DNA of 32,000 nucleotides. Source: Candidatus Thorarchaeota archaeon. Lineage in GTDB: Archaea; Asgardarchaeota; Thorarchaeia; Thorarchaeales; Thorarchaeaceae. A program made the translations under genes and the position numbers. The DNA is taken from assembly GCA_008080745.1 (NCBI GenBank), contig SHMX01000012.1, positions 13,543-45,542 of the forward strand. The letters are read 5' to 3'. Below, piece by piece: positions 17,184 to 31,810 of this stretch. The notes beneath the pieces were generated by a model, which made no database searches, was not told the origin of the DNA, and saw only the letters and a list, made by a program, of their open reading frames with translations. The number at the start of each line of letters is the position of its first letter. Within the stretch, counting starts at the first letter, position 1.

Positions 17184-17409
17184 AATCGTACTCCAAAGAA
17201 ATCAAGTCAAAATATGTCGTATCAAACAGATTAGTCTTGTGTTAATACATCATGATTGAAATAAATCAATGCTGGCGTGTCTGAAAGTAATTTATCTTGA
17301 GTTTGATAACGAGTACTTGAAGTTATGGAAGTTCTGGCATATAGTATCACAATTGAATAGGAAATATATCAACACAGCACTTAAGCGCAATGCCGTATAT
17401 TTTCTAAGC

Positions 17410-18012
17410 ATGTCAGAACCAACTGTATACCACATTCAAAAAGGTAATCTTGTCTTGATGCCAGACCCCGGAGCTTTTGGTAAAGGGGACTGCTATCTTG
17501 TCGATGCAGGTCCAAAAATCTACATCTGGATTGGGCCGAATAGCTCTGTTGATGAGAAGTTTCTTGCAGCTGCAGAAGCGGTTTTCAAAGACACAGCCAG
17601 GAAGGGTCATGCAGATATAGATCACATCGATGGAGGCAACGAACCAGAAGAATTCAAGGCACTCTTTGATGATTTTCATCTTACTGATGAGGATACCGCA
17701 GGTATTCTAAAGAAAGTGCAGATGGAAAAACACGAATACAAGCTCTGGAGAGTACATCGCGATGCAGATAACGATGAAACCTTCTTTGCAGAGGTTCCAT
17801 TAGAACGTTCTTCCTTGAGAAGCGATGATGTCTATATCTTAGATGCGTGGGAAGACATCTATGTTTGGAGAGGAAAAGATGCTACTGCCAGAGAGAAATT
17901 TGACGCAACTATTCTTGCACGACGATACGATGCAGAACGTGTGGGAACACAGGATATCGATCTAATTGAAGAAGGAGACGAACCGGAAGAGTTCCTTGAA
18001 AAAATAGTGTAA
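17410..18012 (+). CDS. Two-domain gelsolin (Asgard 2DGel-type actin regulator)
   Basis: Two gelsolin repeats: FGKGDCYLVDAGPKIYIWIGPNSSVDEK...GGNEPEEF and LRSDDVYILDAWEDIYVWRGKDATAREK...EGDEPEEF. The start is ATG 17410. TTAAG at 17381-17385 fits a leaderless promoter, and the upstream 47 codons of the listed ORF look non-coding. Confidence 0.93.
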   Translation: MSEPTVYHIQKGNLVLMPDPGAFGKGDCYLVDAGPKIYIWIGPNSSVDEKFLAAAEAVFKDTARKGHADIDHIDGGNEPEEFKALFDDFHLTDEDTAGILKKVQMEKHEYKLWRVHRDADNDETFFAEVPLERSSLRSDDVYILDAWEDIYVWRGKDATAREKFDATILARRYDAERVGTQDIDLIEEGDEPEEFLEKIV

Positions 18013-18040: not shown

Positions 18041-19474
18041 CTATACCAAACGATAATGCCCCGTTCTTGGTTCATATACTACACTTGCTAGCTTCATTTC
18101 TTCAAGAGTCTTTGCAGTTATGTGAGTTGGTACATCTGCCTCTTGGGCAATTTCTTGTAACGTCGGCCCCAATGACCTTGTAGTACCATCATCAAGTTTC
18201 CGTAGTGCACGCAAGACTCTGGTATTGAATTTATGATACTTGGAGTCCGCCCCCCATTCCTCCTCCACTTCTGCTTTTAGTTCTGTTAGCTCTAAAAATT
18301 CTTTAAGAGCAGGCTCGAGAACTCGATCCCATGCTTTTTTGATATCACCTGCATTCACCTTACTCTTCCACTTGGACCGAGCAGAAGAACGCGCAAGTTT
18401 GATAGTACTCAATGGTCTTCCTAGAGCATCTGCATCAAGAATATGTCCACGCCCTAAGGACTTGTCTGATAGGCCAAAACTATCCTTTAGCGAATCGATT
18501 TTTCCCAGCACGTGTTTTGTTGCAGCATCAATACTTCTTGAACCAATTGCTGGGGTCTGTAATTGAAATGTTATAGCGGATTTGAGAATGGGAAGCTGAA
18601 GATGAGAAGGATCGTGTGTTTCAACCCAGAAATCCTCTGTTGCCAAAGCAATTGGAACATCGGGAAGTACAGCAGTCTTTGCACCCGTCAAGGTGCTCAC
18701 AGAGACCTCCCGAAAACCTGCTGGATCTACACGATCCAAACATAATTTTCTAAGTTTGGATTTCCCAATTCGTCCAACATCAAGGCGCCAAGAACGTGGA
18801 GCATATACCTTGATTCCACTTACATTTCTATTACGACTGCCTGAGCTACGAAAAGAGGGGGGGAGTACCCGTTTCATGAATCGTAGCAGTCTATTCACTT
18901 GTTGTTTGCTAGCTATTGCTTGAATACCAGCAGTGAGTCCTCCAATAGATTCTTGGAAGGGAGGGCTAGACACATACAATTGTGCAAACACACGTTTACT
19001 TGCTTCAGCCATGCCGACATGCTCGAAGAGAAGCTCGGATATCTCCTTCAACGACAGAGGAGGTCTGATATCATCTAAAAACTCCATCTGCTCAATAGAA
19101 ACAGAGTCAGCAGTGAATGCACGCACAGTTTCCTGTTTTCGCGCTAAAACTCTGGGAACCGCAATACTCCGGCCCTCAACCTCAACAAAAGATCCCTCTG
19201 GTGGAAGAGATTGGTCATCCTTAAACTGAATGAAAGCGCCTTCTAATATCCAAGGGCTGGGTGTAAGCAATATTAGAGATGAATCGCGAGTATAGTGTAC
19301 AAAGCCACGATGACGAAATCTCCTTCCACTCATCCTATGATGAAAGTCTCTTTGCAATTGCATCTCCCAAGCAGTCAGTTCAGCACCAAACTGCCGATCA
19401 AAGACATCACTTGATGCAAAAGCATCACCAAGCCGGTCTCTTGATAATCCATGACGTTCATAGATGTCATCCAT
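18041..19474 (-). CDS. MCM-derived protein lacking ATPase motifs (OB fold, degenerate AAA+, C-terminal winged helix); MCM-BP-like candidate
   Basis: PEGSFVEVEG (OB-type), LLRFMKRVLPPSF (post-Walker-A helix), GRPLSTIKLARSSAR...KVNAGDIKKAW (sensor-2/lid-like) and LEEMKLASVVYEPRTGHYRLV (MCM-type C-terminal WH). No GxxGxxKS, DExD, SRFD or Zn-finger Cys pairs. Start is ATG 19474 after a GGTGG site overlapping the MTase stop. Confidence 0.7.
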   Translation of the reverse strand: MDDIYERHGLSRDRLGDAFASSDVFDRQFGAELTAWEMQLQRDFHHRMSGRRFRHRGFVHYTRDSSLILLTPSPWILEGAFIQFKDDQSLPPEGSFVEVEGRSIAVPRVLARKQETVRAFTADSVSIEQMEFLDDIRPPLSLKEISELLFEHVGMAEASKRVFAQLYVSSPPFQESIGGLTAGIQAIASKQQVNRLLRFMKRVLPPSFRSSGSRNRNVSGIKVYAPRSWRLDVGRIGKSKLRKLCLDRVDPAGFREVSVSTLTGAKTAVLPDVPIALATEDFWVETHDPSHLQLPILKSAITFQLQTPAIGSRSIDAATKHVLGKIDSLKDSFGLSDKSLGRGHILDADALGRPLSTIKLARSSARSKWKSKVNAGDIKKAWDRVLEPALKEFLELTELKAEVEEEWGADSKYHKFNTRVLRALRKLDDGTTRSLGPTLQEIAQEADVPTHITAKTLEEMKLASVVYEPRTGHYRLV

Positions 19475-19488
19475 TAAGGCCAACCACC

Positions 19489-20463
19489 TTAGCTTTCTTC
19501 ATCATGCTTTTGCTCCCGTTTCAAGTATTCATTGTACGCACGAGGATATAACTCTGCCAACTCCTCAATGGTGGGAAGTCTTTCCGTATAGGGAATATAG
19601 TCCGAACCGAGCTGAGATGCCCTCAGACCCTGATCTATTATAGGCTGTAACAACGCGTTCTGCTCAAAACCAAGAAAATGACGGAAACTTCTTTTTGCAG
19701 CTATAGCCGTCGTTCCATTCCCCATAAATGGATCTAGCACTATTGAACCAGGGCGTGAAGCGAAATCAATGCACCTCATGACTATTTCAAGAGGTAATTT
19801 GGTACTGTTCTTTGCACGACCTGGATGATAGCGTCTATTGATTAGCCACACATCCTCCGTATAGTGTTCAATCCGGTTGAAATAATACTCCTTGGGGTCT
19901 TTGACTAAAAACAGAAGGTGGTAATGACTGGTCACAAACTTCCGTTTGGTAAACACACCAAAAGGATAGTTCCAGATAATGTGGTTTATAGTTTCAAGAC
20001 CAGCTTCACGTGCACCTCTAAGAACGGCTTCGAGATTAGTCCACCCACTGAAGATGAATACCGACCCATGATCACAGAGGATACGGGGTAGTTCTGCAAT
20101 CCAGGAGGTCGTGAATTCGGAATAAGTCACCTCGGGTTCTTCATAACCATCAACGACAAGCGATTCGTCACGATTATACATTCCACTCTTGCCATCAAAA
20201 TCAATTCCAAAAGGTGGGTCAGCAATGATGAGGTCAATGGTGTTTTCTTGGATATTTCTCATTCCCTTAATGCAATCCGTAAAATAAACAGTGTCTACAG
20301 CACAACCAACTGTTGAGAGGTCTCGAGAATCATAAAGATCCTGAGCCTCTGCAACAGTCCAGTCCTCATCAGGTTGAAAATAAAATTCTGCTAGATGAGG
20401 AATATACTTACGAGTTCTTTTGGGTTCATCTTCGCATCCTGAAGATTCTGAACTCGAGGTCAT
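19489..20463 (-). CDS. Orphan beta-class N4-cytosine/N6-adenine DNA methyltransferase
   Basis: Catalytic motif IV DLIIADPPF precedes SAM-binding motif I IVLDPFMGNGTT; also TKLPLEIVMRCI and FLGFE. No restriction endonuclease gene is adjacent. Confidence 0.93.
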   Translation of the reverse strand: MTSSSESSGCEDEPKRTRKYIPHLAEFYFQPDEDWTVAEAQDLYDSRDLSTVGCAVDTVYFTDCIKGMRNIQENTIDLIIADPPFGIDFDGKSGMYNRDESLVVDGYEEPEVTYSEFTTSWIAELPRILCDHGSVFIFSGWTNLEAVLRGAREAGLETINHIIWNYPFGVFTKRKFVTSHYHLLFLVKDPKEYYFNRIEHYTEDVWLINRRYHPGRAKNSTKLPLEIVMRCIDFASRPGSIVLDPFMGNGTTAIAAKRSFRHFLGFEQNALLQPIIDQGLRASQLGSDYIPYTERLPTIEELAELYPRAYNEYLKREQKHDEES

Positions 20464-20520: not shown

Positions 20521-20664
20521 TTAGAAATCCTCTCCTATTTTTTTGAGTGTGTTTTCTGTGACTTCTTTGCAGCCTTCTACAAAGGCACAGTTAAGACATT
20601 GAATGTCCTTTTCACTAAAAGATCCAAAACAGTTCGGGAGTTTTTCTGCAGTTGCATCGAGCAA
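20521..20664 (-). CDS. Unannotated 47-aa four-cysteine mini-protein (Zn or Fe-S binding)
   Basis: TTG start 6 nt after a GAGGG(A) site. Translation: MLDATAEKLPNCFGSFSEKDIQCLNCAFVEGCKEVTENTLKKIGEDF*, with C-X10-C-X2-C-X5-C. It occupies an otherwise empty intergenic gap on the same strand as its neighbours. Confidence 0.7.
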   Translation of the reverse strand: MLDATAEKLPNCFGSFSEKDIQCLNCAFVEGCKEVTENTLKKIGEDF

Positions 20665-21820: not shown

Positions 21821-23158
21821 TCATTCCTGTGAACATTCAAGTGTTATTGACACATGTCTAAGTTCTTCATTGACAGTAGAAACTGTTTCCTCACAAGATT
21901 GTCCTTTGCCTAGGAGGACATGTGCAAGACACATCTGGAAAGGAGGTAGGAATGGAACATTACTAGTTTCCAAAATTTCGTTATAGGTACTTCGAATTTT
22001 TGAGTCTTTGAGATAAGTTTCCATCTGATGAAGCGTGGTCTTGTTCTCCAATAGCATATTCATGATTTTCTCTAAGAAAACATCACGAGGAACTTTGACC
22101 GATGAACCAAACAAATTGCTCACATTTGCTTCAAACCAACTACGGACCTTGTCTAGACTGCAATAAGGAAGAATTGTTGGTGACTGACTTTCATCAGAGG
22201 GTATAACGCGAATGTATCCTCGCTTATCAGCCGAGAGAAGAAAGTCAGCTAGCTTGGGATAGCCAATTGTTTCAACATCTAGTCCCTGTTCCTTCAGTTC
22301 CTTGTTGATTACCGCTAAAGTGGTAGGTTCATTTTGTTGAACTTTATCCTCTACTACGGACACAAGGAGAGAGAATGCATCCTGTACATCTTCAGAGAGT
22401 TTCGTAGTATCTTCAGGAACTTCATCAGAGATAGTTATGATGGTAGATGGAAGCTCTCCTTCTTGTTTAATATAACCCATAGATTCTGCCCAATCTAAGA
22501 ACGAAGACCAAGTAGGAAATCCAAGTTGTCTTTCATTGAAAGTTGGATTGAGTGATCGCATGACATGCTTCACATGACCAATACCAGGTTTATTCCCGGC
22601 ATCTAGAATAGCCTGAACCGCCTCACGTAGCCGCACAGCTGCGATACGACGAGATTCGTCGGAACTGGTAAACAGACGTTCACAGTCAGCAGGATCTGAA
22701 CAATCCAAGTCCGTAGGACGAAATGAATGGATATCGGAATAACGATTTGCCAATTCAGACATCTCAGAGGAGGTTATAATGGGATTGCTGATAATCCAGA
22801 GCTGGTTGCCCTGTTCTCGTAAAGCACCAGCTAGTAGTTTGAAATCTCCATCTCCTGTGACCATAACATAGCAATTGACTTCGGGATATCGACCAAGATG
22901 CTCAAGTATGTAGGATGCCATCTTATAGTCCGCTGCGTTATCTTTCGAATCAGGTACATGGATGAGATCATATCCCAAGTCATAGAGCTCTTCTGCCATT
23001 CTCCGTCGTGTATCCCAATCCGCAAATGCATATGCTTTGATAACCTTTCCAGCATCATGGATAGTTTTTGTCATCGCTTCATGTGTGGAGTAGATATCAT
23101 GCACATTCTCTAGATCCCAGAATATTGAGATATGAGGGGCATTCTCTTCCGATGTCAT
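21821..23158 (-). CDS. NYN (PIN-like) ribonuclease with two OST-HTH/LOTUS domains
   Basis: NYN acidic motifs IFWDLEN, NAAD and VTGDGDF..L...LR..G. LOTUS-like segments GHVKHVMRSLNPTFNERQLGFPTWSSFL and LAVINKELKEQGLDVETIGYPKLADFL. TTTATA at about -30 on the minus strand. Confidence 0.85.
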   Translation of the reverse strand: MTSEENAPHISIFWDLENVHDIYSTHEAMTKTIHDAGKVIKAYAFADWDTRRRMAEELYDLGYDLIHVPDSKDNAADYKMASYILEHLGRYPEVNCYVMVTGDGDFKLLAGALREQGNQLWIISNPIITSSEMSELANRYSDIHSFRPTDLDCSDPADCERLFTSSDESRRIAAVRLREAVQAILDAGNKPGIGHVKHVMRSLNPTFNERQLGFPTWSSFLDWAESMGYIKQEGELPSTIITISDEVPEDTTKLSEDVQDAFSLLVSVVEDKVQQNEPTTLAVINKELKEQGLDVETIGYPKLADFLLSADKRGYIRVIPSDESQSPTILPYCSLDKVRSWFEANVSNLFGSSVKVPRDVFLEKIMNMLLENKTTLHQMETYLKDSKIRSTYNEILETSNVPFLPPFQMCLAHVLLGKGQSCEETVSTVNEELRHVSITLECSQE

Positions 23159-23389
23159 GGATGTCACCAATTAACTTGTTAGAAATGTTGTCAACCTATA
23201 AAAATTAGCAGCAATTACACAATAAACCGAATTAGAAGAGATATCTCCAAAATGCACCAAACGAAAGGCGGAGCGTTCATTTTACGCTATAGATCTCCTA
23301 AAGGAAAGGGGGTCGCGGGCGTGAGTGAATATATCTGATATAGAATATATAGCATCAGGGATTCTTGATGAAGTAAGATAGGTAAGGAA

Positions 23390-31141: not shown

Positions 31142-31810
31142 TCAGATATTGAATCTGCCTTCATTAATGATGTACTCTGCAATCAAGAGAATATTAAGAG
31201 CATCTCCCTCAATGTAGTATCTAAATGTGTCTAAATCTTCCATCCATAGATGATAGATGTCTTGAGCTTTATCATCAAATCTCTCAGAAATGAGATTCTT
31301 CTGTCGGACAAGAGGAAGATCAGAGAGTTCAGAGGCTTGGAGCACACCTCTCAGACTGCGTTCTTTGAACATCTTCCGCAAAACAAAGATAAAATCAATC
31401 GGTACACTCTGCTGAATCAGGTCTACCAGCTTCCACGGCTTGATTGTCTTCTTGTATCGCTCCAATTTCATGGACAGTAGAGGAAGGTCGTAGGAACGGT
31501 GATTATAGCCCAAGACACCAAGAGGGCGTACTACATCCAGTGCCTCACCGACTTTCTGAAGCATCTGCATCTCTGCTTCATCAGTGTCCTCTTCAAGTAC
31601 GAAGGTCGCAACACTAACGCCCTCACTCTGGGTCAGATAGCCCTCATCACGACAGGCTAAGGATAGACCCAGAATGCGTTCGCCAATTAAGAACTGACCA
31701 TCTCGTGTATCGGTCTCGATGTCGAGGGATACGACTCGTGTCCAGTACTCTGAGAGTACCTTCAATATCTTTAGTGTGAATGTCTCTTGATACATCTCTC
31801 TCATCCTCAT
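31142..31810 (-). CDS. DEDDy/RNase H-like 3'-5' exonuclease domain protein (standalone)
   Basis: ExoI SLDIETD, ExoII LGYNHRSYDLP, ExoIII YYIEGDA. A T-rich tract follows the stop. Confidence 0.85.
   Translation of the reverse strand: MRMREMYQETFTLKILKVLSEYWTRVVSLDIETDTRDGQFLIGERILGLSLACRDEGYLTQSEGVSVATFVLEEDTDEAEMQMLQKVGEALDVVRPLGVLGYNHRSYDLPLLSMKLERYKKTIKPWKLVDLIQQSVPIDFIFVLRKMFKERSLRGVLQASELSDLPLVRQKNLISERFDDKAQDIYHLWMEDLDTFRYYIEGDALNILLIAEYIINEGRFNI

Follow-up and report, generated by a model that had tools for sequence, protein, structure and literature searches.

Within a 32,000-nucleotide stretch of DNA from a Candidatus Thorarchaeota archaeon (contig SHMX01000012.1 of assembly GCA_008080745.1, positions 13,543 to 45,542; we call this whole stretch the window), we studied a gene on the reverse strand at 18041..19474. 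It encodes a protein of 477 amino acids, followed by the stop codon. The protein is very probably a dead paralogue of MCM, that is, it is derived from MCM and is not an MCM helicase. Our explanation as a whole, which we consider probable, is that this is an ancient, ATPase-dead MCM paralogue that acts as a non-catalytic scaffold linked to replication. Any particular binding partner can be named tentatively at best.

A preliminary description of the sequence had already proposed a catalytically dead MCM paralogue, or pseudo-helicase, at this locus, and the peptide segments that it quoted are all found in place in the open reading frame. As described below, its central idea is supported by the homology of the lid and the winged helix to those of MCM, by the fold of the whole protein, by the loss of the ATPase motifs, and by purifying selection. 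Our literature search found no description of this family, and no Pfam family exists for it. In a 2025 survey of the Asgard replisome, MCM counts as a single-copy gene and the family goes unmentioned (PMC12680538). What is new here is an unannotated lineage; inactive MCM paralogues are an already known kind of protein.

The C-terminal third of the protein is homologous to MCM

The protein alone has no above-threshold match to any family in Pfam or NCBIfam. The profile for the P-loop domain of MCM (PF00493) does not match it at E ≤ 10, and MCM_OB (PF17207) gave no match either. When we searched the whole host genome with PF00493, it found the canonical MCM and two further AAA+ genes but passed over this locus. 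(The host genome has one canonical MCM, of 688 amino acids, on a different contig.) A search of the PDB with the single sequence gave a sole match, to the C-terminus of an archaeal MCM (E = 0.46).

Comparing profiles was more informative. We used hhalign to compare a diverse alignment of the family (alignment A2) with 25 Asgard MCMs, with the host's copy first. Residues 298-477 of the protein aligned to residues 517-688 of MCM, with a probability of 96.6 % and E = 4.8e-10. This stretch covers the whole AAA-lid, the helix that bears sensor 2 in MCM, and the winged helix. Similarly, when the A2 profile was searched against the PDB with hmmsearch, it matched the archaeal MCMs 8x7t and 4fdg (E = 9e-8), the isolated winged helix of SsoMCM (2m45, E = 8e-7), Mcm7 (E = 3e-5), MCM8 (E = 6e-5), and MCM4 (E = 0.013). 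The C-terminus scores best against archaeal MCMs, above the eukaryotic ones. The preliminary description had recognized both a lid/sensor-2 helix and a terminal winged helix, and these two comparisons confirm it.

By these alignments, residues 289-410 (18245..18610, reverse strand, as for all parts of the protein) form an MCM-type AAA-lid with a long connecting helix, which aligns by hhalign to MCM from the host's lineage. Residues 411-477 (18044..18244) form an MCM-type C-terminal winged helix, which has both profile and structure matches (Z = 8.6 to 2m45). The winged helix ends in VYEPRTGHYRLV, a wing motif that is the counterpart of the Asgard MCM consensus LFEPKxGxIKR. The profiles MCM_lid, MCM_WH_arc, and MCM_C give sub-threshold matches in 9-10 of 50 family members, and for MCM_lid this locus is the second-best match in the host genome, also below the threshold. 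The preliminary description had proposed profile checks, and these came out unevenly: the MCM lid and winged helix were found by profile, but the Pfam profiles for MCM, MCM_OB, and MCM_bind had no match.

The predicted fold is that of MCM

We then examined the predicted structure. With the close homologues alone, AlphaFold gave a poor model (predicted local distance difference test, or pLDDT, of 55). We replaced it with a model based on the A2 alignment, which has a pLDDT of 88 and a predicted TM score (pTM) of 0.80.

This model was compared with known structures in three ways, starting with the AlphaFold and Foldseek check that the preliminary description had proposed. Foldseek against the PDB returned MCM subunits throughout the top 50 (E = 1e-13 to 1e-10, over 430-575 columns). 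Against the Swiss-Prot models, the top 30 were also MCM throughout (MCM2-9-type or archaeal), and residues 52-477 were aligned. Second, VIA-align superposed model residues 44-395 on MCM, beginning just past subdomain A, with Z = 16-19 (at most 19.3) over about 300 residues. For 8q6p_7, an isolated ATPase tier of MCM, the root-mean-square deviation was 3.0 Å over 212 residues; for the AAA domain of the P. furiosus MCM (4r7z_A), it was 4.1 Å over 229 residues, with Z = 16.7. Third, in an unbiased search of 48,161 PDB representatives, ranks 1-11 were all from the MCM family (Z = 13.1-16.7). Below them came RavA/MoxR (Z = 11.7), CHU_0153 (10.1), the Mg-chelatase BchI (9.2), BrxL (8.6), and ComM (8.0), and these matches were limited to the AAA+ part (residues ~137-395 for RavA, BchI, and BrxL). 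The predicted fold is an OB fold, an AAA+ domain, and a winged helix, and the protein groups with MCM rather than with Mg-chelatase, MoxR, or BrxL. A different fold, or a grouping with Mg-chelatase or MoxR, would have refuted the preliminary description by its own terms.

In the model, the first 43 amino acids (19346..19474; pLDDT 50-91) stand in place of subdomain A of MCM. They carry a conserved R-x-x-G-x-E...W-E motif, and R27 is near-invariant across the diverse family. Residues 44-130 (19085..19345) form a predicted OB fold that corresponds to the N-terminal subdomain C of MCM, without a Zn finger. The structural alignments begin at its first residue, opposite MCM residue 109-148 or so. 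On its own, this OB fold matches the N-terminal domain of MCM (4me3) with Z = 7.7 and PriB with Z = 8.1. Residues 131-288 (18611..19084) would make up the linker between the N- and C-terminal parts and a reduced AAA+ alpha/beta core, which is without P-loop, Walker B, and arginine finger. The model has an MCM-type (helix-2-insert) AAA+ core and an N-terminal OB fold in one chain, a likeness seen at the level of the fold only. Judging from the profiles and the model together, the MCM-like order of the parts is far beyond chance.

The protein lacks the ATPase motifs of MCM

By both sequence and fold, the closest relative of the protein is canonical archaeal MCM (4fdg and 6mii from S. solfataricus, 4r7z from P. 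furiosus, 8x7t, and the host's copy). Both have the order OB fold, AAA+ core, lid, and winged helix, and both have the wing [VL][YF]EP[RK]xGx[YI][RK] in the sequence-homologous C-terminal part. The differences are large, however. A motif scan found no Walker A (GxxGxGK[ST]), no Walker B, and no SRFD arginine finger in the protein or in about 70 family representatives, so what the preliminary description had said of this one protein holds for the family. (The same scan finds Walker A, Walker B, and SRFD in the host's MCM.) Where the P-loop would be, the family alignment has a short loop that joins a strand to a helix, and the position of the sensor-2 arginine is not conserved. Between the entry helix and the lid, the core is shorter by about 70 residues than that of the host's MCM. 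The family has motifs of its own: SSP...GG, E-x-S, D-x-P, LD...G-x-P-x-S, and R366.

The N-terminal region is also reduced, as the preliminary description had noticed. The protein contains a single cysteine, so it cannot have the Zn finger of MCM. (The host's MCM has C144/C147/C166/C169, in a CxxC...CxxC arrangement.) Subdomain A is missing too, since the OB fold is preceded by just 43 residues, and the structural alignments start past that subdomain. Finally, the protein is basic, with an isoelectric point (pI) of 9.3 overall and of 9.7, 9.9, and 9.5 for the OB fold, the core, and the winged helix, versus 5.4 for the host's MCM.

Judging from its sequence, the protein cannot bind or hydrolyze ATP in the manner of MCM. 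Since the ATPase motifs are lost across the family, it is not a motor.

An archaeal precedent is MCM2 of Methanopyrus kandleri (3f8t), an MCM homologue that is described as inactive and that exists beside a canonical MCM, as here. It was among the top eleven structural matches, with Z = 16.3 (294 residues aligned, model residues 44-395 versus 108-492). But M. kandleri MCM2 keeps subdomain A and is recognizable as MCM by sequence, and our family's profile matches its lid weakly (E = 0.15). The family studied here has kept a winged helix, and it is a lineage apart from M. kandleri MCM2 and much more eroded.

The family is conserved in Thorarchaeaceae and patchy elsewhere

The protein has 219 close homologues (about 479 amino acids, 55-63 % identical), almost all of them from Thorarchaeota and all named "hypothetical protein." In their alignment, 93 columns are invariant. 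When we searched 1.84 billion representatives exhaustively with a profile, 76 clusters came up, of which 74 are family members or fragments. The other two are a canonical MCM, which matched via its C-terminus, and a 609-amino-acid LapA-repeat protein, which we rejected as a false positive. About 45 of the 76 are full-length proteins of 440-490 amino acids with roughly 20 % identity to the query. (A word-indexed search with alignment A4 returned mostly one sub-cluster.)

We then counted full-length matches across 251 Asgard genomes. All 59 genomes of the window's own, Thorarchaeaceae-level family (f1) have one. Elsewhere in Asgard, we found matches in all three genomes of family f26 and in single genomes of f14, f15, f17, and f27; the remaining matches are the C-termini of canonical MCMs only. 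More distant members, which stand alone, are labelled as Odinarchaeota, Asgardarchaeia, Methanomethyliaceae, Bathyarchaeota, and Nitrosotalea. By these labels, the family is not Asgard-specific. A caveat is that, outside Asgard, we judge its spread by the source names of just a few clusters.

The kind may be wider than searches with hidden Markov models (HMMs) indicate. The best match to the whole protein among AlphaFold DB clusters is an uncharacterized protein of 450 amino acids, A0A0P8E1H7 (TM = 0.60/0.63, E = 5e-17). Nearest by features and shape in the ESM Atlas are three unnamed archaeal clusters, which have 464, 139, and 81 members and are for the most part labelled Methanobacteriota; their TM is about 0.5 and their feature scores are 0.96-0.97. 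These proteins have a similar length, have no Pfam family, and were not recovered by the HMM searches, so their kinship is at the level of the predicted fold only.

Within Thorarchaeaceae, the gene is a vertically inherited, core chromosomal gene. Between closely related pairs of species, the ratio of nonsynonymous to synonymous substitution rates (dN/dS) is 0.07-0.13, a sign in the sequences of strong purifying selection. The GC content of the gene is typical for the window. In one genome of this family (G152, C15:114793-116198), the copy is split by an in-frame TGA or a frameshift into two parts, which match profile positions 5-260 and 253-473. We take this for a sequencing error or else a rare loss.

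A proposed role at the site of helicase loading

What might a dead MCM do? We propose that it would be a non-catalytic, basic scaffold for DNA and replication factors, acting through the parts that it has retained: a basic OB fold, an AAA+-shaped scaffold, and an MCM-type winged helix. In MCM, both the N-terminal and the C-terminal tiers bind DNA, and activity requires all of the residues of the ATP site (PMC4619765). The winged helix of Sulfolobus MCM contacts origin-bound (ORB-bound) Orc1-1 (PMC12141716). Because the OB fold and the MCM-type winged helix are kept, and because of this contact in Sulfolobus, we suggest that the paralogue would sit where MCM is recruited or travels. There it could modulate the loading or the activity of the helicase as a mimic, an adaptor, or a competitor, either as a rival of Orc1/Cdc6 or by binding the MCM ring. 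As described below, the gene is next to an orphan DNA methyltransferase in most Thorarchaeaceae. Coupling to this enzyme could link the paralogue to the methylation of replicating DNA, as a secondary and lineage-specific feature.

A more elaborate version, which we consider unlikely, is that the protein, without being their orthologue, plays in archaea the part of eukaryotic licensing regulators of the MCM-BP or Cdt1 type. Through its winged helix and OB fold, it would bind origin-bound Orc1/Cdc6, the MCM ring, or both, and control loading or unloading. In Thorarchaeaceae it would be wired to the methyltransferase, which would couple licensing to the state of methylation.

Several observations weigh against a replication-linked MCM paralogue. 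First, the homology of the OB fold and the AAA+ core to MCM rests on a predicted structure. In the hhalign profile comparison, the first 300 residues had no sequence similarity to MCM, and no match came from a global hhalign run in which the N-terminal 260 residues were set against MCM 170-520. (The preliminary description had placed an OB strand and the entry helix of the AAA+ domain in this region. Their positions fit the superpositions, but there is no sequence signal for them.) Second, we saw no conserved neighbourhood of replication genes around the distant family members. Third, outside Thorarchaeaceae the family is patchy, which speaks against a universal, core role in replication.

Could the paralogue be part of the MCM ring?

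One specific way for the scaffold to work, which overlaps with the proposal above, is that the paralogue co-assembles with canonical MCM as a dead subunit, a cap, or a gate, and inhibits, opens, or chaperones the ring. The preliminary description had this in mind when it suggested a chaperone, an unloader, or an inhibitory subunit of MCM. Dead paralogues in other AAA+ rings act in this way, as in the delta and delta' subunits of the clamp loader and in subunits of ORC. In the model, the OB and AAA+ tiers, which are the tiers through which MCM subunits contact each other, are both kept. The most conserved motifs of the family (all of those listed above other than R366) surround the former region of the nucleotide site, and the paralogue is basic where the host's MCM is acidic. 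However, these motifs are rich in glycine, proline, and serine and may be purely structural. The interface elements of MCM are not conserved in the sequence, the Zn finger and subdomain A are missing, and the gene is not co-localized with mcm in the host genome. Overall, we consider co-assembly unlikely.

The adjacent DNA methyltransferase

The gene directly upstream of the dead MCM, on the same strand and 14 nucleotides away, encodes a beta-class N6/N4 DNA methyltransferase with a DPPF motif (19489..20463, reverse strand; PF01555, E = 2e-32; MTase_II in PADLOC). At the junction, the methyltransferase's stop codon (TAA at 19489-19491) is followed at once by GGTGG (19484..19488, reverse strand), a Shine-Dalgarno-like box, and then by the ATG at 19474, nine nucleotides on. 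An in-frame TTG at 19483, three codons upstream of the ATG, is an alternative start. The ATG is the likely start because the GGTGG box lies 9 nucleotides before it. With the box abutting the methyltransferase's stop codon, we infer that the dead MCM is a Shine-Dalgarno-led second cistron that would be co-transcribed with the methyltransferase and translationally coupled to it.

This arrangement raises the question of whether the paralogue serves the methyltransferase as a subunit with an accessory, targeting, or regulatory function. The two might form an epigenetic module, or a defence module of the restriction-modification kind in which an MCM-like protein replaces the restriction enzyme. The proteins have complementary charges (pI of 9.3 and 5.0), and the order methyltransferase, dead MCM, gelsolin-domain protein is found in 28 of the 29 closest Thorarchaeaceae loci with enough flanking sequence. 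Nevertheless, several findings argue against such a subunit. In about 10 of the 59 Thorarchaeaceae-level genomes (from six genera), the only orthologue of the methyltransferase is on another contig, far from the gene. Conversely, orthologues with 50-57 % identity are present in Asgard families that lack the paralogue (24 of 26 genomes in f4, and also f22 and f24). And the distant members of the family stand alone among unrelated housekeeping genes, with no methyltransferase beside them. The linkage is lineage-specific and dispensable.

As for defence, no nuclease domain is present, none of the families in PADLOC (0 matches) matches the protein, and BrxL appeared in the structure search at Z = 8.6 only. 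With its MCM-like fold, the protein is not a restriction enzyme or another known defence partner, and we rejected that reading. Nor is the locus a defence island, because the neighbours are housekeeping genes. On the downstream side, a convergent gene (17269-18012, forward strand) encodes a protein with two gelsolin repeats, and it is the downstream neighbour in most Thorarchaeaceae loci. Further neighbours encode an Fe-S protein, an NYN-LOTUS protein, an M20 peptidase, a luciferase-like oxidoreductase, Ham1, and TrmB. Taking these together, a role as a subunit of the methyltransferase seems improbable.

Some Thorarchaeaceae genomes hold two paralogous beta-class methyltransferases. For the copy linked to the dead MCM, the alignment extends to about residue 318-320. 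The unlinked copy is 53-57 % identical and resembles the copies from other Asgard families; its alignment mostly stops at about residue 300-312. A C-terminal tail of roughly 20 amino acids may be present in the linked copy. Upstream of the methyltransferase is a 266-nucleotide spacer with a small, TTG-started, cysteine-containing open reading frame (20521-20664, reverse strand), and a TATA-like box, TTTAAGA, lies about 40 nucleotides before the methyltransferase's ATG.

Relation to MCM-BP and to other AAA+ families

The preliminary description had likened the protein to eukaryotic MCM-BP and had raised the idea of an unrecognized eukaryotic signature protein. In this case, it would be the orthologue or the direct precursor of MCM-BP or MCMDC2. 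Two weak leads favour this. MCM-BP and the protein studied here are both ATPase-dead relatives of MCM, and an MCM_bind cluster came up in a language-model comparison at a score of 0.83, which is below the tool's reliability level of 0.9. But with the MCM-BP profile (PF09739) we obtained no match to the protein at E ≤ 10, and this profile is not among the families matched by 50 of its relatives. In a six-frame search of the genome, PF09739 matched an unrelated place only (E = 0.04), not this locus. Neither MCM-BP nor MCMDC2 is among the top 30 Swiss-Prot models, and the exhaustive search gave the family itself, one canonical MCM, and the LapA-repeat false positive. The preliminary description had likened a segment, VLPPSFR, to the L(V)PASFR of MCM-BP, but we found no support for this: across the family, only its P205 is conserved. 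Furthermore, the family has relatives in TACK archaea, and archaeal MCMs give its C-terminus better scores than eukaryotic ones. Orthology to MCM-BP or MCMDC2 is very improbable, and the idea of a eukaryotic signature protein is not supported.

What the family shares with MCM-BP (PF09739) and MCMDC2 is a concept, namely a relative of MCM that is ATPase-dead and acts by binding other proteins. By this analogy it may work alike. We detected no relationship in sequence and no preferential one in fold, and this family is archaeal.

It is hardly credible that the gene belongs in degenerate form to another AAA+ clade (MoxR/RavA, Mg-chelatase, ComM, or BrxL) or that it is a decaying pseudogene or a mobile-element relic or cargo. 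We rejected all of these on structure ranks, lid and winged-helix homology, and dN/dS. RavA, CHU_0153, BchI, and BrxL do share the helix-2-insert AAA+ core, but their matches cover the AAA+ part only and rank under eleven MCM entries, there is no P-loop, the lid and winged helix are MCM-specific by sequence, the reading frame is intact in nearly all genomes with a dN/dS of about 0.1, the GC content is typical, and synteny is conserved.

Other observations

One of the distant family members, on a Methanomethyliaceae contig (L064:4810-8788), lies between a gene for the chromatin protein Cren7 and a convergent Orc1/Cdc6 gene, which is followed by TFIIB. This setting may be origin-proximal.

Many Asgard MCMs are encoded by open reading frames of 1100-2300 amino acids in which the MCM domain is split into separate matches. 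This is the pattern expected for mcm genes that contain inteins, judging from the matches. The host's mcm does not have such a split.

Two other genes in the window encode putative nuclease domains. The NYN-LOTUS protein (449 amino acids; 21821-23170, reverse strand) has an NYN ribonuclease domain fused to OST-HTH/LOTUS. An open reading frame of 222 amino acids (31142-31810, reverse strand) has a weak match to PF03104, the exonuclease domain of family-B DNA polymerases (E = 3.6e-5), and could represent a PolB exonuclease module, either free-standing or a remnant.

Implications

Eukaryotes have dead relatives of MCM as well as loading factors. The usual picture of archaea, to our knowledge, has a single homohexameric MCM and, beyond Orc1/Cdc6, no regulators dedicated to it. 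Our analysis corrects a recurrent misreading in which the two genes are taken for a restriction-modification or defence module. The family deserves to be named and to have its own profile, as every source name that we saw was "hypothetical protein." A dead MCM that is under strong selection, that has gone unannotated, and that is present in every Thorarchaeaceae genome sampled is a candidate regulator of MCM in archaea, and whether it is one can be tested directly with recombinant proteins.

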